A DNA stretch of 64,000 nucleotides from IMG/VR virus record IMGVR_UViG_3300021399_000004, positions 1 through 64,000 of that record. One strand, given 5' to 3'. The notes beneath the pieces were generated by a model. The model was not told where the DNA came from. It worked only from the letters and a program-made list of their open reading frames with translations, and did not search any database. Of this stretch, positions 29,061-58,322 are shown one piece after another. Origin of the DNA: a virus. How positions within the stretch are numbered: position 1 is the first letter of the stretch; every line of letters begins with the position of its first letter. A program made the translations under genes and the position numbers.

Positions 29061-30205
29061 AAAATATTTGCCTCCTTGCTGTTATGTGCTATATAAATAC
29101 GAGAAAACTCACACCATACTTTTAAATCATTTAAAATATTAACATTACTATCATAAGAAACTGTTCCTGATTTAACAATAATCTAATTATTCTCCAATAA
29201 GCAATGCTTACAGCGACGTGCATGATTCCAGCTGGTGGTATCTATTGTATCACATGGCATAATAAAATTATTTAATAAATCTAATAGCGCGAAACCCAAT
29301 CCGTGCACTTTAGTGCCATATGAATGTGCTTCGTCACATAACTCTGTAATTAATTGTACAGCTTCAGAAGGTAGTATTTCTCGGGAAGCTATACCACCGA
29401 TTGCAATCATATCATAATTTTTACACATATTTGTCCATTCTTCTCTTCCACGAGTTTTATGCCAAACTGGAATAGGCACAATTCCAGTCTACTAATATAG
29501 GTATTCTCGTATTCGTTTAACAGCTTCTAAACCAATCATATGATCTAGATCTAATTCAAAAAAATGCTATATTTTAAAATGTTTAATAAAATTAATATAT
29601 CTTTCAACATATTCTAATAAATTAATATCTTTTTTAGGATTATTCATATATGAAAATGCACCACTGTCAAGAAAAAATTCTATATGGTTTGTATGAATCC
29701 ATTGAAAATAATCTTCAGTTAATTTAGTAAAACTTTTTGGAAAATCTAATAAACTATCTAACATATATAAAGGAGTAATTGGTTGCTCTATAGCAAAACT
29801 TTTATTATGAGATAGGCCACCAATAAAAATTTTTGTAGGTGGATATTTAGCAGATGAAATTAAAGATGCTCTGCTATTCTTATCTAACTTCGGGATACTT
29901 TCATTTTTAGGTATTTCATATGTAGATAATATTTTTTCTTTTTCGTGTGGTAATAATATATCTTCTATCACAGTATTTTCAACAGCTGATAACTAGTCTT
30001 GTTCTTTTTGTTGTAATGTATTTGGAGCTGCCATCTAAGGAAAAGACAATAAATAATTAATTAAACGATCATAGCAAGATTGACAAATATCCTAATTAAC
30101 AAATATAATTTCATTATTATTTTTTTTTGGCATTTTAATAATTCGATCATTATTAGTTTCTTGCTAGCAAAAATCACAATAATGAATTTCTAATTGCTTA
30201 ATCAT
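29057..30205 (-). CDS. DpdA/TGT-like guanine transglycosylase with N-terminal zinc ribbon (8 in-frame TAG, including a tandem TAG-TAG at 29489-29494)
   Basis: Track fragments 29183..29479 and 29567..29971 are joined in one frame by TAGs. TGT-superfamily-like motifs: FFLDSGAFSY, MIAIGGIA, VHGLGF and CDTIDTTSW. Confidence 0.55.
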
Positions 30206-30218
30206 GCTTTTAACCTCA

Positions 30219-31481: not shown

Positions 31482-31493
31482 ACACAAAACTCC

Positions 31494-43693: not shown

Positions 43694-44932
43694 TTAACTA
43701 TGATATTTCATCAAATATTCGGGTGAGACGCATTTAAATGATTTTACGCCATCGAGAGAACGGCATACGATGCCTTCCTTTAATTCTCCATTAATAACCG
43801 AAGGCTGGCTATTTACATACTCTCGAAGTTCTTCTACTGAATCAGGTAGAATATATGCTTCATTAAGAATTGGCACACATGGAACATTATATTTTTCTTC
43901 AAGAAGTTTCTTCATCTCACAACTGTTCCAGCGCCCTTTATCGGAAGTAATAAGGTTAAAAGCCATAAAATCATGACCTTTTAGCCCATAAGTATTGCGC
44001 TGGACTCCTTCTCCATAAGTTTCTCCCTGGATTGTAACCCATTTTGCAGAAGGAGTTTCTTTAAGGAACTGAGATAATACTTCAAACATATGGTATTTTT
44101 CAGCCATTTCTAAATAAATATTAGAGTCATAATAGCATTGTTTTTTATTTTCATTACCAAAACATACATTACGAGAGCAGACATAAAATTCTTTCTTATT
44201 AAATCTGCCACGTCTCATCGTGAAAGTAGTTGATGAACCATCACACTTCTCTGTTACAATCCAAGGACTTTTATCTTTGAGTGTCCAAATTTGGTTTTCA
44301 ATTCTTTCTTCGTCAGTCTTTTTTACCCACGCAGGCCAATTATTCTTCTTATCGCCTTTTCTCCCGAAAAGTAAAAACATTATCTTGCGGCCGCACTTAT
44401 ATTTCATAAGCCAACGCACAATTGGCTTCTTGAAAATCTTAGGATGCCGTTGCGCCATTTTCTTGTATTTATCTATAGATGGCGCTTTGCGCTGATTATC
44501 CTCTTCATCTGCATAAGTTACACCAAGCTGCTTAGTCAGGAAACGAGATTCGTTTTCTACATTATGGCTATGTCCTTCATTATCTATGATATAAGGAGTA
44601 TTATATCCTTCAATATTGAGCGCGGGCGCAACATGCCATCCAAAATCTTCTGCGCTCATTAGTAAGCCTTGCGACACAACTTTGCACATTTTAAGGGTCT
44701 TAATTTTATAATTGCGCTTTTCAAGGAAAGCAAAGCACTCTTTATTTGAAGGCACCTTAGAGTCAATCTCAAAGTAAATACCAGGGTCGCCTGGTTTAAA
44801 TTGATCCTTCTTAACTATAACGGCCCAACCGCCAACATGCGCCAATTCTACTCGATCATATCCTGTAATAGAGCTGATCGTATCAACAGTAACTATATAA
44901 CAAAGCTCTCTTTCGCCCGCGGAATTAAGCAT
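43694..44932 (-). CDS. ATP-dependent RNA ligase (DRB0094-like family)
   Basis: 412 aa with no TAG. Nucleotidyltransferase motif I VTEKCDGSS. The N-terminal domain GYDRVELAHVGGWAVIVKKDQFKPGD is typical of this RNA ligase family. Confidence 0.7.
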   Translation of the reverse strand: MLNSAGERELCYIVTVDTISSITGYDRVELAHVGGWAVIVKKDQFKPGDPGIYFEIDSKVPSNKECFAFLEKRNYKIKTLKMCKVVSQGLLMSAEDFGWHVAPALNIEGYNTPYIIDNEGHSHNVENESRFLTKQLGVTYADEEDNQRKAPSIDKYKKMAQRHPKIFKKPIVRWLMKYKCGRKIMFLLFGRKGDKKNNWPAWVKKTDEERIENQIWTLKDKSPWIVTEKCDGSSTTFTMRRGRFNKKEFYVCSRNVCFGNENKKQCYYDSNIYLEMAEKYHMFEVLSQFLKETPSAKWVTIQGETYGEGVQRNTYGLKGHDFMAFNLITSDKGRWNSCEMKKLLEEKYNVPCVPILNEAYILPDSVEELREYVNSQPSVINGELKEGIVCRSLDGVKSFKCVSPEYLMKYHS

Positions 44933-46983: not shown

Positions 46984-47055
46984 AGCGCGATAACGGACTC
47001 GAACCGTCACGGAAACCTTGGAAGGGTTTAATGACTACCATTACATCAATCGCGC
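46984..47055 (-). tRNA. tRNA-Gly(UCC)
   Basis: Acceptor GCGCGAU/AUCGCGC, anticodon stem AAACC/GGUUU with loop CUUCCAA, T arm GACGG-UUCGAGU-CCGUU. Confidence 0.85.
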
Positions 47056-47245
47056 ATAGTATGCCTTATCTAACATACCTGTTGGCGCATACTACCGCAG
47101 CCGAAGCGTTCGTCGTTCACGAGACACTGGTTAGATTTTGAAGTATTAAGTAAGAAGTTCATCTATACTCACTTCTCCCTATCCAGCCGCCGGACTTCAA
47201 CCGACCCGTCACATCCTGTCAATTCAGGCTTTACTCGGCTTGAAG
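47056..47245 (-). ncRNA. structured spacer RNA between tRNA-Asn and tRNA-Gly (unknown)
   Basis: 190 nt with no credible ORF and GC-richer than coding DNA. Several hairpins (AGUAUGC/GCAUACU, GAAGU/ACUUC, a GCUUCGGC tetraloop) and a long-range CUGGAUAG/CUAACCAG helix. Confidence 0.3.
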
Positions 47246-47319
47246 CGCTCCCTGTAGGACTTGAACCTACGACCCATTGCTTAACAGGCAATTGCTGCTA
47301 CCGACTGAGCTAAAGGAGC
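47246..47319 (-). tRNA. tRNA-Asn(GUU)
   Basis: Acceptor GCUCCUU/AGGGAGC, anticodon stem AUUGC/GCAAU with loop CUGUUAA, T arm GUAGG-UUCAAGU-CCUAC, discriminator G. Confidence 0.8.
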
Positions 47320-47338
47320 ATTTCTTTTTTACAATATT

Positions 47339-47367
47339 ATTATACATAAAATTTTATAAAAAGTCAA
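47339..47367 (-). promoter_or_regulatory. promoter TTGACT-N17-TATAAT driving tRNA-Asn, spacer RNA and tRNA-Gly
   Basis: attata at 47339-47344, agtcaa at 47362-47367. Confidence 0.7.
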
Positions 47368-47705
47368 AACATACGCTCATTAATTTTTGTATAATTTTCT
47401 ATTGGAGCTTCAATACAATCATTGCAAAAAGGGTAAATCCAATTACGGCTTAACCACATTGCAGGTTTACCACATACAATACATGTATTAGCAGATTGAT
47501 CCTCATACTTATCTTCTATATCACGAATTGCATCTATTTTACAAGTACTAAAAACATCCATACGGCCCCATTTCTCTTTCATATATGTAACCGTATAAGT
47601 TGGATCAAGCTCTTCACATTCTTTAATCATTTGTCTAGCAAGTTGGTGCCATCCTTCTGGTAAATTATCTAGAAAATAATAATTATCCATATATCCCGCC
47701 ATCAC
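47364..47705 (-). CDS. hypothetical Cys-rich protein
   Basis: 113-aa track ORF inside the RNA island. Confidence 0.45.
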   Translation of the reverse strand: MMAGYMDNYYFLDNLPEGWHQLARQMIKECEELDPTYTVTYMKEKWGRMDVFSTCKIDAIRDIEDKYEDQSANTCIVCGKPAMWLSRNWIYPFCNDCIEAPIENYTKINERMF

Positions 47706-47731
47706 TTCAAATTCGCATTGTCCTTTTTAAA

Positions 47732-47870
47732 TCAAAGCGGATGAGGATTTGCACCTCACATATCAGAGCATTTCGGGCCGTTCGCTTCGCACATTTCTAA
47801 GGCTATACTCACGTTATAGCTATGCCGCCTCTGACTCCCCTTTAAGCGTCTACCTATTCCGCCACCACTT
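47732..47870 (-). ncRNA. Leu-type tRNA-like RNA A lacking an anticodon arm
   Basis: 7-bp acceptor AAAGUGG/CCGCUUU, Leu-type D arm UGGCGGAAUAGGUAGACGC and T arm GUGAGG-UGCAAAU-CCUCAU. These enclose an 83-nt domain closed by UCAGAG/CUCUGA that has no 7-nt U33 loop. Confidence 0.45.
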
Positions 47871-47983
47871 TAAGTCCGTTTTTAATTAGCAGACCAAGCC
47901 TTCTCCCAACAGTCTGCCATGAGCCACACCGTCCGTTATTTACAGCCACGCACTACGGCTTTGACAAGGTGGCTCGCCCCTTA

Positions 47984-48096
47984 ATTATGCGGGTGAGGAT
48001 TTGCACCTCACATGAGCCGCCATAATCCCCGTATGCCAACGGTTCGTCAACAGCTCTTTTGTTGGCTTCCAGCGTCTACCTATTCCGCCACCGCAT
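47984..48096 (-). ncRNA. Leu-type tRNA-like RNA B lacking an anticodon arm
   Basis: Same D arm and T arm as RNA A. Acceptor AAUGCGG/CCGCAUA has an A1xA72 mismatch. The central 57-nt domain is unrelated to that of RNA A and has no canonical anticodon hairpin. Confidence 0.45.
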
Positions 48097-48164
48097 TATG
48101 TAGTAACCCCGTGTTTATTCTTTTGAGCTTTCTGCATACTACTCTGACCAGCTCAATATTTGTG

Positions 48165-48313
48165 GTGTGCTATTACGCCAAATCTCATATTTCTATTATC
48201 TATCGGTACTTCATACTCGTAGGTCATTATAACAAATGTAGCCTACAATACATTTTGCGCCAATAGAGAAATTAAGAACTCCTTAGCTGAATGGCTGCCT
48301 CTAAGCCAACAGT
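48165..48313 (-). ncRNA. repeated structured RNA element X, copy 1
   Basis: Shares the blocks ACUGUNGGCUUAGARGCAGCCAU.CAGCUAAGGAG, GCAAAAUGUAUU and AUUUGGCGUAAUAGCACA with copy 2. Indels break every reading frame. Confidence 0.4.
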
Positions 48314-48402
48314 CCACAATAAATAAGTGGCTGAGGAGACTCTTGTGCGCTCATTTAATCATTTACATTAATCTGTCTAATGAACCACTTTAATTTATAG
48401 AA

Positions 48403-48942
48403 TTACGGCCATTCCCCAAGCGGCATACCAAGGCCAGCGCGCTCAACATTAGTATTAAAAAACACGCCATCAGTTGCAGGACCAGTCAAAAGCTCATCAG
48501 CAATAGTCTCATATAGAGTGCTAATTACACCATGGCAGTCATTTAGATTATCAGCCGCGAATTGCACTACGCAATTATTGAAAACAACATAAGTAGTACC
48601 AATCCACTGATACCCCTCTTCCGCAGGGCAAACAGAATACGCATAAGCAGGATTTCCCTTAAAAGCAGCATCAAATAGTTCAACCTTGCTCTTAAAAGCA
48701 CGGTTACTTGGTACACCATCTACTGCTACCTTTAGGGTAACATTACCAAAAGAAATTTCATCTGGTAGAATTTGCATTAGCGCGGCCACCTTGTCGCCGT
48801 TATTGCAAGCAAATACAATCGAAGGAGTGGAACCACCAAAATCACAGTTACATGCAATCTGAGGATCGCCATCAAATAGTGCTTCAAACTTACGAATTAC
48901 AATAGTCCAAGGAGGAAGAATCTTTAGCCTTGCATTACTCAT
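48403..48942 (-). CDS. hypothetical protein
   Basis: 179-aa track ORF inside the RNA island. Confidence 0.5.
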   Translation of the reverse strand: MSNARLKILPPWTIVIRKFEALFDGDPQIACNCDFGGSTPSIVFACNNGDKVAALMQILPDEISFGNVTLKVAVDGVPSNRAFKSKVELFDAAFKGNPAYAYSVCPAEEGYQWIGTTYVVFNNCVVQFAADNLNDCHGVISTLYETIADELLTGPATDGVFFNTNVERAGLGMPLGEWP

Positions 48943-48983
48943 ATTTTTAACCTCTCTATTCTCAATATACCCTTTCGGGTTAA

Positions 48984-49055
48984 TACCCCATATATGAGTT
49001 GAACATATATAACGTGCTTAGAAGGCACGGGCTCTCTCCGTTGAGCTAATGAGGC
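48984..49055 (-). tRNA. tRNA-Arg(UCU)
   Basis: Anticodon stem CGUGC/GCACG with loop CUUCUAA, D arm GCUC..GAGC, T arm AUAUG-UUCAACU-CAUAU. Confidence 0.8.
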
Positions 49056-49058
49056 ATA

Positions 49059-49131
49059 TGCCCGTGGTGGGAGTTGGACCCTACTTAACTCAGATTAAAA
49101 GTCTGATGCCTGGCCGTTAGGCTACACGAGC
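49059..49131 (-). tRNA. tRNA-Lys(UUU)
   Basis: Acceptor GCUCGUG/CACGGGC, anticodon stem UCAGA/UCUGA with loop CUUUUAA. The T arm is non-canonical (bulged stem, loop UCCAACU). Confidence 0.7.
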
Positions 49132-49137
49132 TTATGA

Positions 49138-49208
49138 CTGGGGTAGCAGGATTCGAACCTACGATGTTGGAGTCAAAGTCCAGAGCCTTACCACTTGGCG
49201 ATACCCCA
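49138..49208 (-). tRNA. tRNA-Gln(UUG)
   Basis: The 5' end UGGGGUAUCGCCAAG.GGUAAGGC resembles E. coli tRNA-Gln. Anticodon loop CUUUGAC, T arm GUAGG-UUCGAAU-CCUGC, discriminator G. Confidence 0.85.
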
Positions 49209-49223
49209 ATAACTTGACCGAAG

Positions 49224-49454
49224 TCAAGTATGATTAGAAACGTCAGATGCGTTAATAGTTATTTTATCGGCAGTAGTAGTAGTAACAACTGGATATGCTG
49301 TCGCCCACCACTCGCCAAGCCATCCTGAGCAATGTGAACAAAATGTCATAAAAGGAGAATTACTTCTGCCGCATTTAGGACAAATCCAACCAGTTGGTTC
49401 TTTTACATCAGGCTTTGGCCGCCAATTAGCACAATTTTCGCAAGTCTTTTCCAT
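49224..49454 (-). CDS. hypothetical zinc-ribbon protein
   Basis: 76 aa with CENC...CPKCG...CSHC. Confidence 0.45.
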   Translation of the reverse strand: MEKTCENCANWRPKPDVKEPTGWICPKCGRSNSPFMTFCSHCSGWLGEWWATAYPVVTTTTADKITINASDVSNHT

Positions 49455-49551
49455 AATATCACCTTTAAAATAAAATGGTGTGGCTTCACGTCACCACAAC
49501 GACATATGGGTTCTTGCGCGGGCTAACCTCTTTTGTTCTAAAAGCCACTAG

Positions 49552-49626
49552 TACCCTCGGTGGGAGTTGAACCCACAGAAAACCACATTTTGAGTGTGGC
49601 GCATATGCCAATTCTGCTACGAGGGC
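49552..49626 (-). tRNA. tRNA with anticodon CAA (Leu codon UUG) but class-I architecture
   Basis: Anticodon stem CCACA/UGUGG with loop CUCAAAA, T arm GUGGG-UUCAACU-CCCAC, only a 6-nt variable region, discriminator A. Confidence 0.6.
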
Positions 49627-49634
49627 ATAAATAG

Positions 49635-50036
49635 TGCGGGTAGCCGGACTTGAACCGGCACGCCTTACGGCAACAGATTTTCTTACTACTCCATATTACT
49701 ATGGCCGCTTTCGCGTTGTAGTCTGGACTATGTTTTCACCTTATCTTACGACTTAGGTGGCTGGTATATAGTCTCTACACATTTATAATAATAGCTTCCC
49801 GCCGCCAGTTCTTCGACTCTTATCGGCGTTTCTGTCGGGCGCGACCCGCATCCCTGTTTTGCATCTTATTCAGGTTTCTCCTGAACCGACCTTCATCGGT
49901 GCTATTATTAATTTAGCTCGGCGTTATCCCATAAGGATTTTCACCGAATTAGCCAGCATTCACTCAGAAAGTTTCCTATTCTGGTGCTCTTTGTTTTACA
50001 AAAGTCTGTGGTGTCTGCCTATTCCACCATACCCGC
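49635..50036 (-). tRNA. tRNA-Leu(UAA) interrupted by a group I intron (exons 50002-50036 and 49635-49681)
   Basis: 5' exon GCGGGUAUGGUGGAAUAGGCAGACACCACAGACUU and 3' exon AAAAUCUGU...GCCGGUUCAAGUCCGGCUACCCGCA join to give anticodon loop CUUAAAA. Class-II variable arm and discriminator A. Confidence 0.85.
49682..50001 (-). ncRNA. group I intron (tRNA-Leu UAA type, about 320 nt, no ORF)
   Basis: Inserted after U34. P1 can form CUU^UU/AAGAG with a U-G pair at the splice site. The intron ends in G. The core strings GUGUAGAGACUA, CCACCUAAG and AUAGUCC match the conserved J6/7-P7-P3 region remembered from Azoarcus and Anabaena tRNA introns. Confidence 0.85.
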
Positions 50037-50195
50037 AAATTACACGGTGACGCTCACAATTTACCGTAATTTCCCTTATAAGGCCCTGAGGTGGACCCTG
50101 GCGTCTTGTTCTGGCCGTCATCAAGCTCTTCGGCCTGCTTACGACGACTCCACGATGAAGAAAAAACTACCACTCAATCGCTTCCTTTCTTATAC

Positions 50196-50224
50196 ATTAT
50201 ATCAAAATTCTTCTTCATTGTCAA
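50196..50224 (-). promoter_or_regulatory. promoter TTGACA-N17-TATAAT driving a ~140-nt leader and intron-containing tRNA-Leu
   Basis: attata at 50196-50201, tgtcaa at 50219-50224. Confidence 0.7.
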
Positions 50225-50351
50225 GATTATCCATGAATAAATTTTCATAATAATCTTCAATTTTAATACCTTGCAAAGTTGAAGGAATTCCTTCAATTAA
50301 CGGATCAATTTCTGGTAGTTCGTCAAAATTTACATAGTATTCATCTCGCAT
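50202..50351 (-). CDS. small acidic hypothetical protein (start trimmed)
   Basis: Track ORF 50202..50387 begins inside tRNA-Ile. The second ATG at 50351 lies 5 nt after the tRNA, whose 3' GGGGAGGA can act as the SD. Confidence 0.35.
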   Translation of the reverse strand: MRDEYYVNFDELPEIDPLIEGIPSTLQGIKIEDYYENLFMDNLDNEEEF

Positions 50352-50355
50352 ACAA

Positions 50356-50428
50356 TCCTCCCCCTTGGAATTGAACCAAGGACACACGACTTATAAGGAC
50401 GCTGCTCTCACCGCTGAGCTAGAGGAGG
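50356..50428 (-). tRNA. tRNA-Ile(UAU)
   Basis: Acceptor CCUCCUC/GGGGAGG, D arm GCUC..GAGC, anticodon loop CUUAUAA on a stem with one mismatch, T arm CUUGG-UUCAAUU-CCAAG. Confidence 0.65.
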
Positions 50429-50429
50429 A

Positions 50430-50615
50430 TTAATCCTCCACATTTAAACTTTTGCTAATAGTATCTTCATGATACCCCAGTGCGAGTGAAAAGTACCGAA
50501 ACTTATCTACTAATTCCGAATATGTTAGACCTTCATCTCCTGTAGAAAACTTGTAATGAATTTCATCACCGTCACTGTTCGTATAAACAAATTCGTACTG
50601 TTCTTTGAAATCCAC
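50430..50615 (-). CDS. hypothetical protein
   Basis: 61-aa track ORF behind a consensus promoter. Confidence 0.4.
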   Translation of the reverse strand: MDFKEQYEFVYTNSDGDEIHYKFSTGDEGLTYSELVDKFRYFSLALGYHEDTISKSLNVED

Positions 50616-50639
50616 TCTTATCCCCTCGCTATCATATAT

Positions 50640-50668
50640 ATTATATCAAAATTTTTATTGCAAGTCAA
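50640..50668 (-). promoter_or_regulatory. promoter TTGACT-N17-TATAAT
   Basis: attata at 50640-50645, agtcaa at 50663-50668. Confidence 0.7.
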
Positions 50669-51117
50669 CTTCTTTGCCATTCAAAAATTTCATAATTATG
50701 TTCTTGAAACCATCTATGGATTATTGTTCTTTCACTACATTTCTTTTCTGGTTTTTCGTAAACCATTAAAGCAAAATCTACACTATCTAACCCCTCTCCA
50801 GCAGCAATTTTATCCGACATATCTTGTAATTTATCAATAAAAGCATGAAAATTAATTTTACATAATTGCTTATAATATACTCTTAGAAATTGACAATCTT
50901 CTGGATGAGGAGGCTCACAGCATCCATTACATAAGTGATTACATGCTGGGCCAGGAATAAGTGGCGGAATATTCAAACCAATAATAACTCCACGGGCATC
51001 TTTCCCCTACGTTTCAGGCGTCCCAAAATACTTTGGCGGCCAGACCGCAGTTGATAATGGTACTAAATTTTTAGGGAAAAAGCGCACCTAATAGAAATAG
51101 GATGTATAAATCTTCAT
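50665..51117 (-). CDS. hypothetical protein (2 in-frame TAG)
   Basis: Track ORF 50665..50976 extends through two TAGs to the ATG at 51117 (MKIYTSYFY-TAG-VRFF...). Coupled by ATGA to the upstream ORF. Confidence 0.45.
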
Positions 51118-51323
51118 TCCACTAAATCAACCTTCCATCCAAAATAGTTATTATATACAATTGTATTAGCTGTTCCACAGACAGGACAAGTTATATAATC
51201 TTCTTCTTGATTATATTGCATGCTTGTCTATACGTCGTCTTTAGTAAATTCTAGAATAGACCCGCAACGCTTACAAGACATTCGTCCAACGCTAGGACGA
51301 TAGGCGCGTTCAATAACTCTCAT
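51114..51323 (-). CDS. hypothetical zinc-ribbon protein (1 in-frame TAG)
   Basis: 69-aa ORF with CKRCGS...CPVCG, open only if TAG is sense. Confidence 0.4.
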
Positions 51324-51341
51324 TTATATCTCTCCTTTTAA

Positions 51342-51428
51342 CGACACTAGCACGGCTCGAACGTGCATACCCTGTTACAAGTAACCGCAGATTAGCAATC
51401 TGGTGCGTTACCATTCCGCCATAGTGTC
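51342..51428 (-). tRNA. tRNA-Ser(GCU)
   Basis: Acceptor GACACUA/UAGUGUC, anticodon loop UUGCUAA, long variable arm with GUUAC/GUAAC stem, T arm GCACG-UUCGAGC-CGUGC, discriminator G. Confidence 0.8.
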
Positions 51429-51436
51429 ATTTTAGA

Positions 51437-51576
51437 TGTGCTATTACGCCAAATTTCTTATCTATTGCCCACCGCACATCATACTTATAGGACATATAAT
51501 TGTAAGCCTATAATACATTTTGCACGAATGGAGAAAAGAAAACTCCTTAGCTGATGGCTGCTTCTAAGCCTACAGT
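51437..51576 (-). ncRNA. repeated structured RNA element X, copy 2
   Basis: Homologous to 48165-48313. Lies between the degenerate Ser-like tRNA and tRNA-Ser(GCU). Confidence 0.4.
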
Positions 51577-51587
51577 TCTAAAATAAG

Positions 51588-51672
51588 CGACAGTACCAAG
51601 ACTCGAACTTGGGCACCCGTTAAGATGGCTACGGATTAGCAATCAGGTGCGTTACCATTCCGCCATAGTGTC
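51588..51672 (-). tRNA. degenerate tRNA-Ser(GCU)-like paralog
   Basis: The first ~40 nt are identical to tRNA-Ser 51342-51428 except for one base. The 3' half is different: the anticodon stem keeps only 3 pairs, the acceptor has a C-C mismatch, and the T arm CCAAG-UUCGAGU-CUUGG is intact. Confidence 0.4.
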
Positions 51673-51678
51673 AAAAAA

Positions 51679-51753
51679 ATCGAAGATGTGCGATTTGAAC
51701 GCCAACTAGTCGTCCCAAGCGACTCGTGTTACCAGATTACACTACATCCTCGA
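51679..51753 (-). tRNA. tRNA-Pro(UGG)
   Basis: Anticodon stem AGUCG/CGACU with loop CUUGGGA, acceptor UCGAGGA/UCUUCGA. The T stem is weak (3 pairs). Confidence 0.6.
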
Positions 51754-51768
51754 TATTTTTAAAATAAA

Positions 51769-51853
51769 CAGCCCGCTTGGGAGTCGAACCCAATCTGTCG
51801 CTTCAGAGGCTGTGGTTTTAGAGACCACCCGTGCAGCCGCACACCTACGGGCT
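51769..51853 (-). tRNA. suppressor tRNA, anticodon CUA (reads UAG), class-II architecture
   Basis: Acceptor AGCCCGU/GCGGGCU, anticodon stem GUGGU/ACCAC with loop CUCUAAA, an 18-nt variable region containing a UCUG/CAGA stem, T arm UUGGG-UUCGACU-CCCAA, discriminator G. D region is GCGGCUGCACGG. Confidence 0.8.
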
Positions 51854-51886
51854 ATATAAGTGAGGTTTCCCTCACTTTCTATAATA

Positions 51887-51915
51887 ATTATACCAAAATT
51901 TTAATTAAATGTCAA
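51887..51915 (-). promoter_or_regulatory. promoter TTGACA-N17-TATAAT directly upstream of suppressor tRNA(CUA)
   Basis: attata at 51887-51892, tgtcaa at 51910-51915. The leader hairpin AGUGAGGGAAACCUCACU (51858-51877) precedes the tRNA. Confidence 0.7.
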
Positions 51916-52354
51916 ATGTATCACTTGCTAAAACAATCATATAATAACTATTTGGTTCAACATACTCAGTATTTACTAGAATACTTCCATCTTCATTTAA
52001 AGTACCATTACATACCTCAATAGTAATTAAATCCATAGAACAAAATACAAACTTAATAATTTGATCTTCCTTATATTCGCAAGGGAAACTCCAAGTCATT
52101 GTTGGATAAATATCATCTACTTCAACTGTTATGATTTCATAAATACCGTAATAGTCATCTTCAAATAGCTTATTAAAATCAACGACTTCACTTACAGTAT
52201 TATAAATATCTTCCCATTCTTCATCCAACTCAACTACATGAAAAGGCAAATCAGGCTAACACCAATATAAATCTTCAAGAGAAGGACTATCCGCCGCAAA
52301 ACAAGTCGTTATAATCATCATTAATAGCAACCAAATACTTAAAAATCTCTTCAT
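51905..52354 (-). CDS. secreted hypothetical protein (1 in-frame TAG)
   Basis: Track ORF 51905..52249 extends through one TAG to the ATG at 52354, adding the signal peptide MKRFLSIWLLLMMIITTCFA. Confidence 0.45.
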
Positions 52355-52383
52355 AATTATCATCTTCCTTTTTATTTTTTAAA

Positions 52384-52456
52384 AGCCGCCCATGAGACTT
52401 GAACTCATAACCTATTGCTTACAAGGCAATTGCTCTGCCGATTGAGCTAGAGCGGC
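52384..52456 (-). tRNA. tRNA-Thr(UGU)
   Basis: Acceptor GCCGCUC/GGGCGGC, D arm GCUC..GAGC, anticodon stem AUUGC/GCAAU with loop CUUGUAA, T arm AUGAG-UUCAAGU-CUCAU. Confidence 0.9.
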
Positions 52457-53066
52457 GAAAGAGGATACTCTACTTAACAATTATAGTGACCTTCGTCATA
52501 CTTGCAGCATTCTTCAATTATATTCAACCACTACAGAATTAAAGGCTGAGCCATGAGTAGCGACCTCATAACTTCTTTAATCCGCTTTCGCCTAGTGTAG
52601 GAGGGGTTGTTTACCCTCAAGTTTCAGCCAAACCATTCAGCAAATACGATAAAAAAGCTTACCCCGCTTTTGTTTATCATGCTAAATTTCTGTCTTGGCC
52701 TACTCCAACTTTAAACCTTTCTTATATGCCATTTCTGGCTTTCATCGACAGTAACCGCTTGTTGGTCTTTCCTGAGTTTGTACTGGCTACCACCCCAATA
52801 CCTTATCAGGATTCGGCATTATCTATTCAATACTGCTGTCTATTATGCGGCCGAAAGGAATAATGTTTTTAATTGCGAATACTCAAGCGCCTATCCTTAA
52901 TCTTTGGAGTTTCTCCTTTATCGCTAATCATTGCTGATTTCGCGGCTAGATAATAAAAGTATCCTTCTATCATTGCTAGCGATTGTCCGGATAGCCCAAG
53001 CTACGTGGTTAGCGTATCTGCACTTGGTTCTAAAATTGCTAAGTAGAATATCCTCCCTCTCAGTAT
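52457..53066 (-). ncRNA. large structured RNA 1 (~610 nt; ROOL-like candidate by size and context only)
   Basis: Starts just downstream of consensus promoter 53073-53101 and ends at tRNA-Thr. No ORF on the transcribed strand. Visibly GC-richer. The ends pair over 19 bp (53037-53055 with 52472-52490), and the two differences between the arms are both G-U compatible. Confidence 0.55.
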
Positions 53067-53072
53067 AATACT

Positions 53073-53101
53073 ATTATACCAAATTTTTCTTTAAAAGTCA
53101 A
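53073..53101 (-). promoter_or_regulatory. promoter TTGACT-N17-TATAAT driving large RNA 1 and tRNA-Thr
   Basis: attata at 53073-53078, agtcaa at 53096-53101. Confidence 0.7.
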
Positions 53102-53113
53102 ATATTTGACTAG

Positions 53114-53186
53114 TGGACTGACGGGGAATCGAACCCCGACTCTCTGCTTGCAAGGCAGAAGTGCTAACCATTATCACTACCAGCCC
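53114..53186 (-). tRNA. tRNA-Ala(UGC)
   Basis: G3-U70 wobble in the acceptor, anticodon stem UCUGC/GCAGA with loop CUUGCAA, T arm GGGG-UUCGAUU-CCCC. Confidence 0.9.
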
Positions 53187-53386
53187 ATATTCACTTACTT
53201 TCGTTGTCTTTTTATTATAGTGTGCTGCTAAATGACTAAGCCACATATCTTTTAACTCCACTAAAGCACATTTGGTTTAGCATTTCCTTACTTGGTCTAC
53301 AGTTAAAAGCCGGTGGTAGTTTAGTGAGAATCCATCCTTACCGCACACTAGGCCTATTTTATTACACGCAGAGCGCCCATGCGTAC
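53187..53386 (-). ncRNA. structured RNA between the split tRNA and tRNA-Ala (unknown)
   Basis: Nested long-range helices UAGUGUGC/GCACACUA (53343-53350 with 53218-53225) and CUUUUAACU/AGUUAAAAG (53301-53309 with 53249-53257). No ORF. Confidence 0.4.
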
Positions 53387-53530
53387 TGGCGCTCCCCATA
53401 GGATTTGAACCTATAACCCTGCGGTTAGGGCAGAGGCGAGAATTGAACTCGCAACGTGGGCGTCCCTCACACGATTACCAAATCGTCTCTCTGCTACAGC
53501 CGCATGCTCTACCGATTGAGCTAGAGGAGC
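53387..53530 (-). tRNA. class-I tRNA (Asn GUU if joined at canonical positions) with a 68-nt insert in the anticodon loop; CCA encoded
   Basis: Perfect acceptor GCUCCUC/GGGGAGC, D arm GCUC-AAUCGGUA-GAGC, T arm AUAGG-UUCAAAU-CCUAU and anticodon stem UGCGG/CCGCA. The stem strands are 75 nt apart instead of 7. Confidence 0.6.
53428..53495 (-). ncRNA. tRNA-shaped insert within the anticodon loop of the 53387-53530 tRNA
   Basis: Acceptor-like AGCAGAG/CUCUGCC, D-like hairpin ACGAU-UUGGUA-AUCGU, short hairpin GUGAGGGACGCCCAC, canonical T arm GCGAG-UUCAAUU-CUCGC, then one discriminator-like C. Confidence 0.5.
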
Positions 53531-53569
53531 ATAGAATGGGGATTTTATTTTTCCCTCATTCACAATATA

Positions 53570-53598
53570 ATTATACATTATTTTTTACTTTAAGTCAG
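53570..53598 (-). promoter_or_regulatory. promoter CTGACT-N17-TATAAT driving the split tRNA
   Basis: attata at 53570-53575, agtcag at 53593-53598. The leader hairpin GAAUGAGGGAAAAAUAAAAUCCCCAUUC lies at 53534-53561. Confidence 0.6.
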
Positions 53599-53602
53599 AT
53601 TT

Positions 53603-55315
53603 TTAATAGTAGAAATAATATTGTTCTGGCAAATTTTTATTGTCATTTAATTCTCGTACAAAGCGTTTAATATTTGGTCTTGGAATGTATTGCGATAACT
53701 TTTTAATTCGTCTACTAAAGAATATTGATTGCTAATTTTCATTCTCTCGGCTATTTTCATCTGCATATTTCTTATAGCTTTGTAGATAAAATCGTCTTAT
53801 ATCTTTCCAATATTGCTCTAAAAATTCAGGATGGTTTTTAACACAACGAAGAAAGTAATTATACAAATCAATTAAGAAAATATTCATTTTTTCTATTATA
53901 ATACTAGTGTCTACTTTTGCTTTTTCGCATAAGTTAATACAGTAAATACCATTATCTACAATGCCTGGCAAAGCTGTATATAAAAAATTTTTATTATCCT
54001 TATATGTTAATGAATTTTTATTTACTACAGTTTTATATATTGGCAAATCATAATGCCGAATATGATATGTCTATTCTACTCTATTGTAGTCATCAATAAT
54101 AGCATAGCAAGTCAAATTTATACCACAGTCTTCTGCCGCAAAAGAACCAACACCTTGATTATATGGTAAAATATTATAAACTTCTAAGAACTCTCTACGA
54201 TATACTTTACCGGGTGTAGATGGTTCATATGCACTTTGTACTATATTATCTGCGCCGTTAATCCAACTCCATTCATAAATGTCCATAACTCTATTATTGT
54301 CTAATTCATCTTTTACAGCTAGTAAACAATATTTAGATAAAATAATATCGCCGCAATCTACAAAAGTTAAATATGTACCGTGTGTATTTTGCATGCCGAT
54401 GCGTCTGGCATTGCCGGGCCCCTAATTCTTTTCTAATTTAATCAACTATATTAATGGAAACTATTTAATTATATTAGTATAATCAACTGATGAAGCGTCA
54501 TCAATTACTACAATATGTAACCACTCATATTCTGGATAATAAACAGATTTTAAAGTACGTATTAATCCTTTTTCATCATTATAACTAGGTATAATAATAT
54601 CTAAATCTATCTTATCCGATTGATTATATATTATTTTATTATTAGGGATAGACATATATTTATTAAAAATAGGATATTTCTACCATTCATGGTTCCCTGC
54701 AAAATGATTTATTTTTCTACTTTTTGCTTTCTAAAAATCAGTAGAATCATTCATATTATAGTCAGGTGGTAAATTTAAAATATAACCTTGACATAATTTA
54801 TTTAAAGCATTTTGCTCTGGAAAAATTTCATAATGATTATTAATATAATTAATTAGTTCATCATCTTTTTTATCATCTCGTAATTTTTTTAGATTCATTA
54901 ACATAACGCCGCAGTTAATATCTAAAAACATTTCAGTACAATTAGAAGGCTAAGACGAAGCGGCAATGTAATAATCACTAATATCTATATCCCATAATTC
55001 TGAAATATTTTCATTTACAATTGTATCAACATCTAATGACAAAACTTTATCTAAGTCCGGGAATATTTTTCCTAAAGCAACTCGTATTAAGGCCATATAA
55101 GTAAATTCACTTTTAAAATTAGGCCCATGCTTATCAAAATAAGTCTAATTACTTACATTTAATGTTTTTGTTTTTGGCGGTAATTCATATGGAAATACGT
55201 CATCTTCAATTAGAAAATAAATCTATTCAACATTTGAATGAATAAGTAATGATTTTGCTGCACCAATCATATATTTGTAAAGGTTTCTGGTGCCTGTATA
55301 TACCGCTGTCCTCAT
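53603..55315 (-). CDS. fused family-8 / family-2 glycosyltransferase (about 10 in-frame TAG)
   Basis: Four track fragments (53732..54046, 54071..54394, 54461..54655, 54731..54931) plus the N-terminus share one frame, and every junction is TAG. GT8 motifs LSLDVDTIV and NCGVMLMNLKKLR. GT2 motifs IIIPSYNDE, VVIDDASS and GPGNARRIG. If the TAG at 53732 terminates, the end is 53732. Confidence 0.55.
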
Positions 55316-56010
55316 AATATTTCCTCCCATTTCAAATTGATATAATATCGTACAATGGGTTCTACAAAGAAATAATCACGAATACCAGCATAATGATAAA
55401 TTTTTCTTTTATTAGGATTATAATTCATAAATAATGGATGAGAATTATATTCTGTTGGTAATTCTAGAATATGATTCTTATATACCTTATTAAGAGTATC
55501 CTATTCGGCGTACTCTTCTCTATAATGATTTAATCTAAAAATCATTTTTTCATCCATTTTATCTTCACGAATTTTTTTTAAATTACATAATAATACTCCG
55601 CCGTTTACATATAATCCATTTTTATTAAATTCTGGTGTATCTCTTACGCCAGCAATATAATAATTTGATATATCAATATCCCAAAGTTCATCTATATTTT
55701 CAGTAACAATTGTATCAATATCTAAAGATAGAATCTTATCTAACTCTGGGAATATTTTAGAATAGACAGAGCGGATAAGAACCATATAGCCACCCCATCC
55801 ATCATACCAATTCATGCAAGTTTCTTTCTTAAACCATTGCTAATTACTGATATTAATACACTATACTTTATCTGGTAGTTCATAAGGGAAAATATCATCT
55901 TCAATTAATAAAAATATCTAATCAATATGAGAGTTCATTAGTAATGATTTTATAGCAGGTATCATTTTATAATACACATTTCGTGTTCCACTATATGCCG
56001 CTACTTTCAT
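55312..56010 (-). CDS. family-8 glycosyltransferase (4 in-frame TAG)
   Basis: ATG at 56010 to TGA at 55312. Contains LSLDIDTIV (DxD) and NGGVLLCNLKKIRE. Confidence 0.6.
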
Positions 56011-56044
56011 ATTACACTTCCTTAAATAAAATTAAAGTTTATAA

Positions 56045-56117
56045 TACCCGATGTGAGATTTGAACTCAACATTTCAGGCTTGAAAGGCCTGCGTGCTTAC
56101 CTTTACACAAATCGGGC
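56045..56117 (-). tRNA. tRNA-Glu(UUC)
   Basis: Anticodon stem CAGGC/GCCUG with loop CUUUCAA, acceptor GCCCGAU/AUCGGGU. The T arm has one bulged U. Confidence 0.8.
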
Positions 56118-56950
56118 ATATAGCGGTTTGATAACTCAGCCGCAACTGAGTAGGCTACACTGTGTGACGGATGCGGCTCGGCCTCTACGGATACCGTCGT
56201 AACGTTATCCTACCGCTTTACCAGTTTACCCCTTGTACTTTGGGCTGGCGAGGACATTCAAGCCTGATGTTTCCTCCCATTCCGTTTTTCACCTATAGAG
56301 TATCTGGCTACTCTATAAGAAGTCGCTACGCTTCTTGCCCCAATCACTCACTGACTGGCGTCATAGCCTTTTTAATGTCTAGACCATGTAACGACAACTA
56401 GCGATGAGAACCATTTATTCTCATTTTCTGGAACACTAGGTACTTTATTTTACTCCTCTTTTGTATAGCGCCGAGTAAGTTCGGTATAAGTACGCAACCC
56501 TTCACTTTGCGCTTTCTTGGCTGTTCTTCAAACTCCATTTAACCCATTCTTCTCATATGCTGAAATTAATCATATTAGCTACTTATGATCCGACTCAAAT
56601 CCTTCTTCAGCATAACAGCATTTGGGCACCATTACTCTGCCTGCCTACCAGAGTCGCAGCAGTTTGGCCCTGCTTGCCGACACCGCATATTTATATACCG
56701 CGAACGATGTGCGGTTTGGCATGTACCATTTAACTATTTATTAATCGCTCTGAAATACGTACCAAAGGAGCGATGGCTTTTCCCTATCCCTTAAGGCACG
56801 GCCGCGCTTTTAAATAATGCCGCCCTATATCTCTTCAGGTCTGGTCTTTGCCAATCCCCACTTCCCATTTCCGAAGTGTAGCGCACCATGTTAGTTTGGC
56901 TCAACACGGATAGCCGCAGCGTAGATTAATGTCCCTACTGTCTTGGACAA
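56118..56950 (-). ncRNA. large structured RNA 2 (~830 nt; GOLLD-like candidate by size and context only)
   Basis: Fills the whole interval between tRNA-Asp and tRNA-Glu in one promoter-driven unit (promoter 57096-57124). No ORF on the transcribed strand. GC-richer, with many hairpins, for example the 9-bp UAUAGAGUA/UACUCUAUA at 56294-56317. Confidence 0.55.
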
Positions 56951-57026
56951 TGGCGACTTCGGCGGGAATTGAACCCGCGATTTCCAGTGTGACAGACTGG
57001 CGCGATAACCACTACGCTACGAAGTC
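56951..57026 (-). tRNA. tRNA-Asp(GUC), CCA encoded
   Basis: Acceptor GACUUCG/CGAAGUC, anticodon stem CCAGU/ACUGG with loop CUGUCAC, T arm GCGGG-UUCAAUU-CCCGC, then GCCA. Confidence 0.9.
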
Positions 57027-57095
57027 ATAAAGGCGGTTTAAACTATTTTTAGTCTCATTACCGCCAAGTTTAAGGACTCTCAACCTTACATATAT

Positions 57096-57124
57096 ATTAT
57101 ACTAAATTTTTTAATTAATGTCAA
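57096..57124 (-). promoter_or_regulatory. promoter TTGACA-N17-TATAAT driving tRNA-Asp, large RNA 2 and tRNA-Glu
   Basis: attata at 57096-57101, tgtcaa at 57119-57124. The leader contains a GGCGGU...ACCGCC hairpin. Confidence 0.7.
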
Positions 57125-57277
57125 TTAATCATCATAACACTCGGTTTCAATACCAAGTTCCTCACAGAAGTCAGATTCAATTTCATACCAAGTCTCATGC
57201 ATGGCATAGTCATACGCATAATTAGTGTATTCTTCAGAATGGGCCTCACATACGAAATCATCCAGATAGTTAATCAT
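57125..57277 (-). CDS. small acidic hypothetical protein
   Basis: 50-aa ORF with a GAAGGAGG SD behind consensus promoter 57304-57332. Confidence 0.35.
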   Translation of the reverse strand: MINYLDDFVCEAHSEEYTNYAYDYAMHETWYEIESDFCEELGIETECYDD

Positions 57278-57303
57278 ACTACCTTACCTCCTTCTGTATC
57301 TAT

Positions 57304-57332
57304 ATTATACTTAAATTTTTAATAAAAGTCAA
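57304..57332 (-). promoter_or_regulatory. promoter TTGACT-N17-TATAAT
   Basis: attata at 57304-57309, agtcaa at 57327-57332. Confidence 0.7.
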
Positions 57333-57434
57333 GAAAAAATCATCTAAATTTTTACTCTTTGAACTTTCTCTTTAAAAATAGGTTGTGAGGCTATCGTTAA
57401 ATTCAAGTAAAAATTTCAAAATTTAGATGAAATT

Positions 57435-57463
57435 GTTACCTTTATTCGCGTAATAAAGGTAAC
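57435..57463 (-). terminator. terminator-like 12-bp hairpin ending the RNA downstream of tRNA-Met
   Basis: GUUACCUUUAUU-5 nt-AAUAAAGGUAAC followed by AAUUUCAUCUAAAUUUU. Confidence 0.5.
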
Positions 57464-57783
57464 GGCTAAGAATTTAACATAGTCTTAGCAAACTACGTGT
57501 TTATATCGAAAACAAACCGAGCAGTTATCGTACTGGGTTCTCAACGGCCACGAGTTCGTCGGGTTGGTTCCACCCCGCCGACATACATTTACGAAGATGC
57601 AGGATTACGGCATGATGTTGCTCCGGAACAAACTTATATGGTCATGCGCTCATAGCTACTTATATAAGGAAAAGTAGCCTAAACCGCTATCTTTTCTCCG
57701 CGGTAAGTTAAGATAGCAAAACTTTCCGTAACGACTGTTGCGCACTTAAGTTTCTCCATTATAGATGGAGGCTTCTCGCGCAG
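57464..57783 (-). ncRNA. ~320-nt structured RNA downstream of initiator-like tRNA-Met (unknown)
   Basis: No ORF and GC-richer. Bounded by the tRNA at its 5' side and a 12-bp terminator hairpin at its 3' side. Internal helices include GUCGG...CCGAC. Confidence 0.4.
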
Positions 57784-57855
57784 TTGCGGGAAGAAGAATC
57801 GAACTTCTATCTCCGGGATATGAACCCAGTCATTTTACCTTTACACTATCCCGCG
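57784..57855 (-). tRNA. initiator-like tRNA-Met(CAU)
   Basis: 5' CGCGGGA with a C1xA72 mismatch, anticodon stem ending in GGG/CCC, loop UUCAUAU, 3' end CCCGCAA as in bacterial tRNA-fMet. The D stem is weak. Confidence 0.7.
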
Positions 57856-57897: not shown

Positions 57898-58245
57898 TTA
57901 TAGTAGATTTAGTAACTTCGGAAAATCAAAAATATCGAAAAGACTAGGGACTTCCTTAATATCATTGGTAGAAAAATGATAGGTCTTATACTTGGAAATA
58001 AAATCTTCCAATTCCTTCCGATACGCATTTTGTGCTTCAACCATTGCCTTGCGCGCGGCATCAACACGCTCTGCGGCGGCCTTGCGCTCGGAAGCGGCCT
58101 TTTCCTTCTCTGCCTTGACGCGGGCCTCTTCTCTTTCCTTCAATACCTTTTGACGATTAGCCTCTTCCTGTGCCTTAAATTCGGCTTCGAGACATTCCTT
58201 TTCAGTATTGTATACCTTATTAAGTTTTTCGCTGTAGTATTTCAT
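57898..58245 (-). CDS. hypothetical coiled-coil protein
   Basis: 115-aa track ORF, Lys/Glu/Ala-rich. It is the first gene of the minus-strand block behind promoter 58323-58351. Confidence 0.5.
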   Translation of the reverse strand: MKYYSEKLNKVYNTEKECLEAEFKAQEEANRQKVLKEREEARVKAEKEKAASERKAAAERVDAARKAMVEAQNAYRKELEDFISKYKTYHFSTNDIKEVPSLFDIFDFPKLLNLL

Positions 58246-58322
58246 ATTAATCTACTCCTTCGCAGTTCCTTACCTGCTTTCTTTATTTCAAGGGAGGTTC
58301 CTTACCCTCTCTTGATAAATAT

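Follow-up and report, generated by a model that had tools for sequence, protein, structure and literature searches.

Phage islands of transfer RNA (tRNA) genes are usually seen as codon-usage helpers. In the tRNA cluster of phage T4, stable RNAs known as species 1 and 2, of unknown function, are co-transcribed with the tRNAs and split from them by tRNA-processing enzymes. ROOL, an RNA of phages and prophages that forms an RNA nanocage and is without known function, typically lies near tRNA islands, and GOLLD is likewise found in phage tRNA islands (PMC12286853, PMC5737381). Here we describe a 10.9-kb RNA-gene island at positions 46984-57855 of a 64,000-nt stretch of viral DNA (IMG/VR record IMGVR_UViG_3300021399_000004, positions 1 to 64,000; the whole stretch is called the window). 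It is confirmed as a real island in which tRNA genes are interleaved with conserved structured RNA, and one third of it consists of conserved RNAs other than tRNAs. We propose, with a probability of about 0.7, that it is organized as polycistronic RNA operons, which would be cut at tRNA and tRNA-like elements.

A group I intron occurs in the tRNA-Leu(UAA) of cyanobacteria and plastids, inserted between U34 and A35. tRNA-like structures serve as processing handles in the tRNA-like domain of transfer-messenger RNA (tmRNA), in mascRNA, in the tRNA-miRNA units of gammaherpesviruses and in engineered "tRNA scaffolds". Lak megaphages contain "enigmatic" tRNA introns, one of which "may encode a tRNA" (Devoto 2019, PMC6784885); the same observation was repeated for recoded jumbo phages in a 2026 survey (PMC13037316). 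The mechanism is unexplained. RNA ligases of the DRB0094 type are reported to be 140-fold enriched in recoded gut phages that carry theta ribozymes (Kienbeck 2024, PMC10879173).

tRNA genes interleaved with conserved structured RNA

All genes of the island lie on the minus strand. ARAGORN identifies 16 tRNAs (Gly-TCC, Asn-GTT, Arg-TCT, Lys-TTT, Gln-TTG, Leu-CAA, Ile-TAT, Ser-GCT twice, Pro-TGG, Sup-CTA, Thr-TGT, Ala-TGC, Glu-TTC, Asp-GTC and Met-CAT), 15 of which pass the Rfam tRNA threshold in a run over the whole window. When introns are allowed, two interrupted genes bring the number to 18. Ten anticodons start with U, so that the set comprises mainly U34 species for A-ending codons together with an amber suppressor. 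Two tRNA-like genes, TL1 and TL2, are present in addition (Table 1). An earlier note, made from the sequence alone, had listed the tRNAs of this interval and counted ten U34 anticodons; both agree with the ARAGORN result.

With TAG counted as a sense codon, tRNAs and open reading frames (ORFs) leave about 3.6 kb of the 10.9 kb unaccounted for, which bears out the roughly 4 kb that the earlier note had described as interleaved with 18 tRNA or tRNA-like genes. The pieces are segment F (832 nt), G1 (348 nt), ROOL (584 nt), B (697 nt), A (189 nt), the non-exon part of E (268 nt), C (165 nt), the first copy of an element termed X150 (157 nt) and a group I intron (320 nt). The GC content of the ORF-free segments is 0.40-0.47, compared with 0.27 in two glycosyltransferase genes of the island and 0.35 in the window. 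No credible ORF is present in the GC-rich segments even with TAG as sense, and the ORFs that overlap them, those on the plus strand included, have no Pfam match. The earlier view of the GC-rich segments as ORF-free thus holds; the TAG recoding had been overlooked, however, and what look like small ORFs in the glycosyltransferase region are two long recoded genes.

To place the segments among their relatives, we used 60 related loci from IMG/VR (contigs of up to 193 kb, labelled L001-L060), found with a 179-aa ORF of the island (48403-48942) whose protein identity in these loci is 76-93%. BLAST of each segment resolved the long ones into strings of 60-170-nt modules that are conserved in up to 60 related phages. 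The hairpin-dense stretches of 140-830 nt recognized previously thus do contain structured RNA, but as strings of modules and not as single RNAs. Module identity is 85-100% where that of the neighbouring protein is only 76-93%, and in other loci X150 or a second element, M95, occupies entire gaps between tRNAs. As judged from these alignments, the modules recombine between phages. Pieces of segment F match different related phages at 75-100% identity; their order is kept, the spacers differ, and a tRNA-Met sometimes lies between them. The possibility that F is one 832-nt RNA was rejected on the basis of its minimum free energy z-score of -1.7 and its independent modules. The GOLLD model does not match F at E<=10 (1.7 kb, lax filters), nor does it match in seven related loci, and an exact 26-mer from F is absent from IMG/VR.

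Compensatory base changes were found in five elements: the TL frame, the helix of a tRNA-like mini-intron (both described in the next section), X150, M95 and F3. Segment D (51430-51586) and part of segment B match the same places in other phages and are therefore two copies of one RNA of about 150 nt, X150. Its 18-sequence alignment contains 48 consensus pairs, 22 of them with compensatory changes. The alignment of M95, with six sequences from two clades only, has 23 pairs, 8 with compensatory changes, and in F3 91% of cells are paired and helix 4 covaries. The long-range helix of E2 reads ACCGUU/AACGGU in L037. The order X150-Bmid1-TL is kept in L051, L038, L016 and L017.

Given that TAG is already recoded in this phage, and standard ORF calling is hence unreliable, the segments called ORF-free might encode proteins by further recoding or frameshifting. 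We consider this highly improbable. With TAG as sense there are only short ORFs, inconsistent between copies, and the two X150 copies have a common sequence in different reading frames. Moreover, indels of 1, 2 and 4 nt, not multiples of three, lie within conserved blocks of the aligned modules, base-pair covariation is present, and Pfam finds no match. The conservation among relatives is RNA-like rather than protein-like, which is the outcome on which the earlier note had staked its reading.

A scan of the island with Rfam 15 recovered a full-length ROOL RNA, which scores 328 bits against a gathering score of 99.1 (E 1e-75) and covers model positions 1-574 of 574. Its promoter (-10 end 53073) lies 22 nt upstream and tRNA-Thr 11 nt downstream, with tRNA-Ala on the other side; the phage has DNA polymerase, topoisomerase and helicase genes, and ROOL is also found in 22 related loci. 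The scan further gave a group I intron at its gathering score, and the remaining modules were without a match: none was obtained for the TL, X150, M95, A1, E2, F and G1 elements even with the laxest filters, and the searches of F+G, A+B and E returned only tRNAs. The families absent from Rfam number at least six (TL, the tRNA-like mini-intron, X150, M95, A1, and the F and E2 modules). Among 50,697 GenBank phages, BLAST found nothing similar to the island (near mode) or to segment F (distant mode). Taken together, ROOL, the group I intron and five other elements with compensatory changes go beyond a plain phage tRNA cluster, as had been claimed; the RNA island is real, but part of its content was already known, ROOL and GOLLD being typical of phage tRNA islands (PMC12286853, PMC5737381).

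A scan for the promoter consensus TTGAC(A/T)-17-TATAAT, with matches scored out of 12, gave eight minus-strand matches of 11-12/12 (-10 ends 58323, 57304, 57096, 53073, 51887, 50640, 50196 and 47339) and one of 10/12 (53570), that is, nine sigma-70-type promoters in one direction. All six promoters named in the earlier note (47339, 50196, 51887, 53073, 53570 and 57096) match the consensus, five of them at 11-12/12; those at 50640, 57304 and 58323 are further ones. Behind the promoters the RNAs follow each other head to tail, often at distances of 0-25 nt, and a few small protein genes separate the blocks.

We propose that each promoter unit is transcribed as one precursor that would be punctuated by its tRNAs and tRNA-like elements. 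With RNase P cutting on the 5' side of each such element, and RNase Z or exonucleases acting on its 3' side, the intervening RNAs would be released as discrete molecules, comparable to the T4 tRNA cluster. From the conservation described above we infer that the inter-tRNA segments exist as stable RNAs. The tRNAs and the suppressor would serve the decoding of AT-rich, TAG-containing phage genes. The TL RNAs and mini-introns keep the parts that processing enzymes recognise, without a usable anticodon, and would therefore not be decoders.

The mosaic, module-wise similarity between phages can also be read differently. Most of the non-tRNA DNA could be cis-acting or decaying, and consist of leaders, trailers, terminators, processing signals and remnants of tRNAs or introns shuffled by phage recombination. 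In line with this, A1 and F8 are tied to tRNA ends, part of segment B (48325-48397) has its match in the periphery of the L036 group I intron, and G1 is without relatives. We regard this explanation as quite unlikely, since the modules are better conserved than the neighbouring protein, X150, TL and the mini-intron show many compensatory changes, and many small phages that are unrelated to each other retain TL as a solitary gene.

Several points weigh against the operon reading itself. G1 is unique to this phage: no homologs were found in the 60 related loci, Rfam gave no match at E<=10, and a metagenome 20-mer scan was empty. Its fold z-score is -1.9, and values of -1.7 to -1.9 are unremarkable; the ARAGORN tmRNA search and Rfam were both negative for a tmRNA in G1. 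Segment C has little support, with two homologs at 58-60% identity and a predicted fold with 10 both-side changes. Instead of being stable RNAs, the F8 leader and the A1 trailer could act in cis as processing signals. Most of the alignments come from one phage clade, so that fewer independent events lie behind the covarying cells than their counts suggest. Additionally, the assignment of the host is indirect.

tRNA-like RNAs, tRNA introns and the A1 motif

TL1 and TL2 share an almost invariant frame. Its 5' part is tRNA-Leu-like and comprises the acceptor strand, U8, G9 and the D arm GCGGAAUAGGUAGACGC; its 3' part consists of a 6-bp T stem, the loop UGCAAAU and the acceptor strand. The centres are hypervariable, 43-190 nt in length, with at most a 4-5-bp mini hairpin, and those of TL1 and TL2 (58 and 84 nt) are unrelated. 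Usually, the centre begins with a short hairpin, and a long irregular helix then extends up to the T arm. TL is thus similar to a class II tRNA whose anticodon arm is stunted and whose variable arm is giant. Among 32 distinct frames from related phages, 94.9% of cells are paired and 13 of the 16 pairs have changed on both sides. Not one of 500 shuffles was as good, and slid controls reached 30-56%. The 5-bp anticodon stem, 7-nt loop and U54-U55-C56 of a canonical tRNA are lacking in both TL1 and TL2, for which the Rfam tRNA model has no match. We rejected the interpretation of TL as an intron-containing tRNA-Leu, since the stem that would have to be the anticodon stem lacks conservation.

The 23-nt T-arm pattern of TL occurs in at least 120 IMG/VR contigs. 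In 88 of 119 loci the 5' frame lies within 450 nt of this pattern; other loci carry an insertion inside the D loop. An ordinary tRNA is absent nearby in 71 of the 119 loci. No protein family is consistently found alongside TL (the best one in 12 of 119 loci), and no endonuclease or reverse transcriptase is linked to TL or to the mini-introns. TL RNAs are widespread in Firmicutes phages, including the cultured phage phi3T.

The unannotated TL of Bacillus phage phi3T (KY030782.1, ~50190-50330) is located downstream of an HU-like gene and overlaps the annotated ORF phi3T_57, which may be spurious. Another unannotated copy, in Lactiplantibacillus phage Gut-P1 (ON117106.1, ~44705-44805), lies between two tRNA-Arg genes. 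Neither copy has a match in Rfam, and no description of RNAs of this type was found in the literature searched. In bacterial and archaeal genomes the 15-mer GAGGTGCAAATCCTC gave 120 chance matches, none with the TL 5' frame; the pattern is too short for such a search.

The second tRNA-Asn of the island is interrupted by a 68-nt mini-intron. The insert has a closing stem of 6-7 bp, two small hairpins and, by the 3' strand of the closing stem, a T-arm-like hairpin, GCGAG-UUCAAUU-CUCGC. ARAGORN reports about 80 interrupted tRNAs in the 60 loci, many with 43-117-nt inserts of the mini-intron kind. When 12 inserts were aligned with pairing left out of account, a 7-bp stem and a 5-bp hairpin stem together made up 12 bp, the length of the tRNA acceptor/T stack; 96.5% of the cells of this helix are paired, and six pairs have changed on both sides. 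Intron-less alleles with 100% identical exons (L012 vs L032, L025 vs L047, L055 vs L046) fix the boundaries of the mini-introns, which lie between positions 34 and 35, start with G and end with A, often in NCCA or NCAA. Because of synteny and these same alleles, the ARAGORN labels "Thr-GGT", "Pro-TGG" and "Val-CAC" of interrupted genes were rejected in favour of Asn-GUU, Gln-UUG and Glu-UUC. The insert of the window is found free-standing, 100% identical over 67 nt, at L034 3491-3557, 21 nt upstream of an uninterrupted tRNA-Asn that is itself followed by an A1 motif.

Such presence/absence alleles, together with the free-standing copy in L034, would suit selfish mobile elements that spread between phages and into anticodon loops and are removed by the host tRNA machinery, with no benefit to the phage. 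The hypervariable TL centres, the lack of a partner protein and the insertions in TL D loops point the same way. On the other hand, no endonuclease or reverse transcriptase is linked to these elements, and the TL frame is under strong purifying selection in the contigs that carry it. This is more than a neutral passenger needs, although a parasite dependent on processing would need the same. We therefore treat a selfish origin of TL and the mini-introns as possible, if on the unlikely side; within the operon reading, they may be cargo carriers, decoys or selfish elements.

It may also be that the free-standing TL RNAs are the same kind of element as the mini-introns, with a variable cargo domain. 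As a tentative and rather doubtful proposal, the mini-introns could represent a new protein-dependent tRNA intron of the bacterial world, excised and then resealed by the phage ligase. The element would be a 12-bp acceptor/T-arm minihelix at anticodon position 34/35 or 35/36. An RNase P cut at its 5' edge and an RNase Z-type cut at its tRNA-like 3' end would leave a 3'-OH and a 5'-phosphate, and the tRNA halves would be resealed by the DRB0094/Rnl5-type RNA ligase, whose gene lies 2 kb downstream of the island. The predicted end chemistry and the ligase gene fit this proposal; the 3' tails, which vary in length (1, 2 or 4 nt), are not a neat fit.

A1 always starts directly after a tRNA 3' end, or after CCA if encoded, in 13 other contigs as well, and the upstream tRNAs are Glu, Asn, Gly, Ala, Val, Asp and Tyr. 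Hairpin 2 shows two independent compensatory changes, and hairpin 1 is compensatorily changed in L019. A1 is a candidate processing element or candidate new ribozyme. A pseudoknot between a loop and the 5' end was rejected, as the divergent copies L019 and L081 do not preserve it. The motif was also compared with ribozymes of the hepatitis delta virus (HDV)-like or theta type, for which a nested double pseudoknot from G1 (P1-P2-P3-P1.1, with the catalytic C in J4/2) was sought. A1 could not be threaded on this fold by eye. A 7-bp P1 is incompatible with its covarying hairpin GCCGG/CCGGC, the motif starts with U, and no ribozyme model of Rfam, the HDV-like ones included, gave a match.

The other interrupted gene, tRNA-Leu(UAA), contains a candidate group I intron, the splicing of which is predicted from sequence. 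It scores 50.0 bits with Rfam RF00028, equal to the gathering score of 50, and does not appear in the default gathering run; the homolog in L001 scores 50.3 bits. The insertion point is after U34 and before A35; U is the last base of the 5' exon and G that of the intron. Joining the exons at the junctions ...ACAGACUU / intron ...GUAAG / AAAAUCUGU gives a sequence that folds as tRNA-Leu(UAA). Homologous intron-bearing tRNA genes are present in L001, L022, L036, L015 and L046, and relatives have the same intron with different peripheral domains.

In seven relatives, a compact group I intron of 173-177 nt is present in the suppressor tRNA, between positions 35 and 36. Within the window, 73 nt just upstream of X150 copy 2 (48325-48397, minus strand) are 82% identical to L036 9209-9279, where the group I intron in the tRNA-Leu of L036 has a peripheral domain. 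RNA domains appear to move between introns and free-standing positions. The tRNA genes at L050 5554-6090 and L054 1170-1711 have 442-446-nt inserts containing an ORF; these may be tRNA introns of a third type, one that has an endonuclease.

Genetic code, phage type and feature coordinates

TAG is a sense codon in this phage. The GT8 and GT2 domains of the two glycosyltransferase genes run, according to Pfam, across their 14 in-frame TAGs, and many genes of the window contain such codons, up to 14 in an 880-aa ORF (for example, 40619-43261 and 1361-2362, both on the minus strand). The window also encodes a PolC-like DNA polymerase, topoisomerase II subunits, a DnaB helicase and the RNA ligase (Pfam, PHROG); the DNA polymerase, topoisomerase, helicase and ligase genes have no in-frame TAG. 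The residues aligned with TAG positions in relatives are Q (73), K (53) and E (46), all three one mutation away from TAG, and the inserted amino acid is probably Gln, as in genetic code 15. As in stop-codon-recoded phages, in-frame TAGs within conserved domains are accompanied by a suppressor tRNA(CUA); given the many genes with such codons, this tRNA is a functional component of the island. The amber suppressor tRNAs of the clade ("Pyl-cta" in L005, L010, L019, L032, L034 and L045) share a long variable arm, G73 and a 1-72 pair that is weak or mismatched, and the amino acid with which they are charged is not evident from the tRNA sequence.

The source is a large (~160-190 kb) TAG-recoded phage of rumen type, and the type of promoter, together with the distribution of TL, suggests a Firmicutes host. 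The tRNA-Ile with anticodon UAU is also found in 34 related loci; AUA in bacteria is normally read by a modified CAU tRNA. Islands of relatives contain further RNAs, namely a tmRNA in L001 (8991-9344, 92.7 bits) and drum RNAs in L038 (5097-5208, 70.8 bits) and L022 (6308-6401, 53.9 bits); neither type was found in the window. A sub-threshold match to the cow-rumen-4 RNA (58261-58316, minus strand; 38.5 vs 48.5 bits, E 0.002) sits in the 5' leader of a 115-aa ORF (57898-58245), right behind the promoter with -10 end 58323. An unusual phage cargo is encoded at 28380-31487 (minus strand), where the genes of a Vut_1/YhhQ-type transporter and of a xanthine/uracil-family permease are TAG-recoded; an adjoining 382-aa ORF has no Pfam match.

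Table 1. Features of the island and the nearby ligase gene, with positions in the window.
Feature	Position	Strand	Remarks and basis
tRNA-Met(CAT)	57783-57855	-	ARAGORN; Rfam tRNA 46 bits
G1	57435-57782	-	348-nt GC-rich ORF-free segment, terminator-like hairpin at 57435-57463; terminator scan
tRNA-Asp(GTC)	56951-57026	-	First gene behind promoter with -10 end 57096; ARAGORN, Rfam
Segment F	56119-56950	-	832-nt module array between tRNA-Asp and tRNA-Glu; BLAST vs 60 loci
F3	56631-56716	-	Pseudoknotted hairpin and two hairpins; alignment of related loci
F4	56553-56630	-	Hairpin; BLAST of related loci
F5	56396-56552	-	13 aligned sequences with 1-4-nt indels
F8	56119-56170	-	Leader of tRNA-Glu; in related phages always leader of the next tRNA
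tRNA-Glu(TTC)	56044-56118	-	ARAGORN, Rfam
Two TAG-recoded glycosyltransferase genes	53603-56010	-	232 aa, 4 TAG; 575 aa, 10 TAG; ORF calling with TAG as sense, Pfam
tRNA-Asn(GTT) with mini-intron	53387-53530	-	68-nt insert (53428-53495) in anticodon loop, encoded CCA at end; ARAGORN with introns allowed, sequence read
E2	53214-53350	-	Core upstream of tRNA-Ala, helix AGUGUGC/GCACACU around variable hairpin; six aligned homologs
tRNA-Ala(TGC)	53113-53186	-	ARAGORN, Rfam
ROOL RNA, full length	52468-53051	-	Rfam RF03087
tRNA-Thr(TGT)	52384-52456	-	ARAGORN, Rfam
Amber suppressor tRNA(CTA)	51768-51854	-	Long variable arm, G73; first gene behind promoter with -10 end 51887; ARAGORN "Pyl" with anticodon cta; weak tRNA-Sec match
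tRNA-Pro(TGG) and tRNA-Ser(GCT)	51587-51753	-	ARAGORN, Rfam
X150 copy 1	51432-51581	-	Between two tRNA-Ser genes; alignment; no Rfam match
tRNA-Ser(GCT), second copy	51341-51429	-	ARAGORN, Rfam
tRNA-Ile(TAT)	50355-50429	-	ARAGORN, Rfam
C	50037-50191	-	155-nt leader between promoter (-10 end 50196) and tRNA-Leu(UAA); two homologs
tRNA-Leu(TAA) with group I intron	49635-50036	-	320-nt intron (49682-50001); Rfam Intron_gpI; ARAGORN i(36,320)
tRNA-Leu(CAA), 76-aa zinc-ribbon ORF (49224-49454), tRNA-Gln(TTG), tRNA-Lys(TTT), tRNA-Arg(TCT), in that order	48983-49626	-	ARAGORN, Rfam; ORF check
X150 copy 2	48161-48318	-	Same coordinates in related loci as copy 1; in same alignment (A4)
Bmid1	48098-48157	-	60-nt conserved motif that links X150 to TL; six homologs, 73-95% identical
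TL1	47986-48096	-	tRNA-like RNA, 58-nt variable centre in place of anticodon arm; pattern search
M95	47886-47981	-	96-nt motif between the two TL genes; six sequences
TL2	47734-47870	-	tRNA-like RNA, 84-nt centre; pattern search
tRNA-Asn(GTT)	47245-47319	-	Behind promoter with -10 end 47339; ARAGORN, Rfam
A1	47186-47244	-	59-nt motif, two hairpins, starts at the nucleotide after the tRNA-Asn 3' end; related contigs
A2 and A3	47056-47185	-	Hairpin-rich module (47128-47185) and tRNA-Gly leader; five aligned homologs with compensatory changes
tRNA-Gly(TCC)	46984-47055	-	ARAGORN, Rfam
RNA ligase (Rnl5/DRB0094-type)	43694-44932	-	412 aa; Pfam RNA_ligase and PHA02142 OB domain; PHROG 968, E 6e-59

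Comparison with known systems

The coordinates and alignments given here are offered for candidate new RNA families, namely TL, X150, M95 and the motif at tRNA 3' ends. An architecture is now defined for the "enigmatic" short phage tRNA introns, and all of these elements lie beside ROOL. If the RNAs are processed together, the island would provide a natural system for studying the roles of ROOL-type RNAs and of anticodon-less tRNA mimics in infection. The mini-introns also raise the question of an enzyme-based tRNA splicing route in bacteria and their phages.

As in the ROOL and GOLLD islands, a large ornate RNA is found here among phage tRNA genes (PMC5737381, PMC12286853), in this case a full-length ROOL with its own promoter. 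However, ROOL accounts for 584 nt of the approximately 3.6 kb, and the other conserved RNAs are not in Rfam. Segment F has the size and context of GOLLD without a match to its model.

The mini-introns share with those of Lak and jumbo phages their short length, their non-group-I character, their location in the anticodon loop, the TAG recoding, and the existence of alleles with and without the intron (PMC6784885, PMC13037316). In contrast to what is described there, the inserts studied here combine a 7-bp stem and a 5-bp T-like hairpin in a 12-bp minihelix, often with an NCCA or NCAA tail, covariation and a free-standing gene copy. The phage clade also differs (~170 kb, sigma-70-type promoters).

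Like theta ribozymes (PMC10879173), A1 starts at the tRNA 3' end whatever the type of tRNA, in a TAG-recoded phage with a DRB0094-type ligase. Conversely, A1 has no starting G, its two covarying or invariant hairpins occur in another order, and it could not be threaded by eye on the nested double pseudoknot. The intron of tRNA-Leu(UAA) occupies the same insertion point as that of cyanobacteria and plastids; here it is found in a phage, and its score is only at threshold.

With the tRNA-like processing handles, TL has in common an acceptor/T-arm stack, a D/T elbow and a variable cargo, with no decoding anticodon arm. It differs from them by a full tRNA-Leu-like D arm, a 6-bp T stem, a G in place of the universal U55, and a cargo at the position of the variable arm; no sequence relation between TL and such RNAs was detected. 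Compared with the T4 tRNA cluster, the present island has more RNAs of greater diversity, multiple promoters, two kinds of intron and a recoded genetic code.

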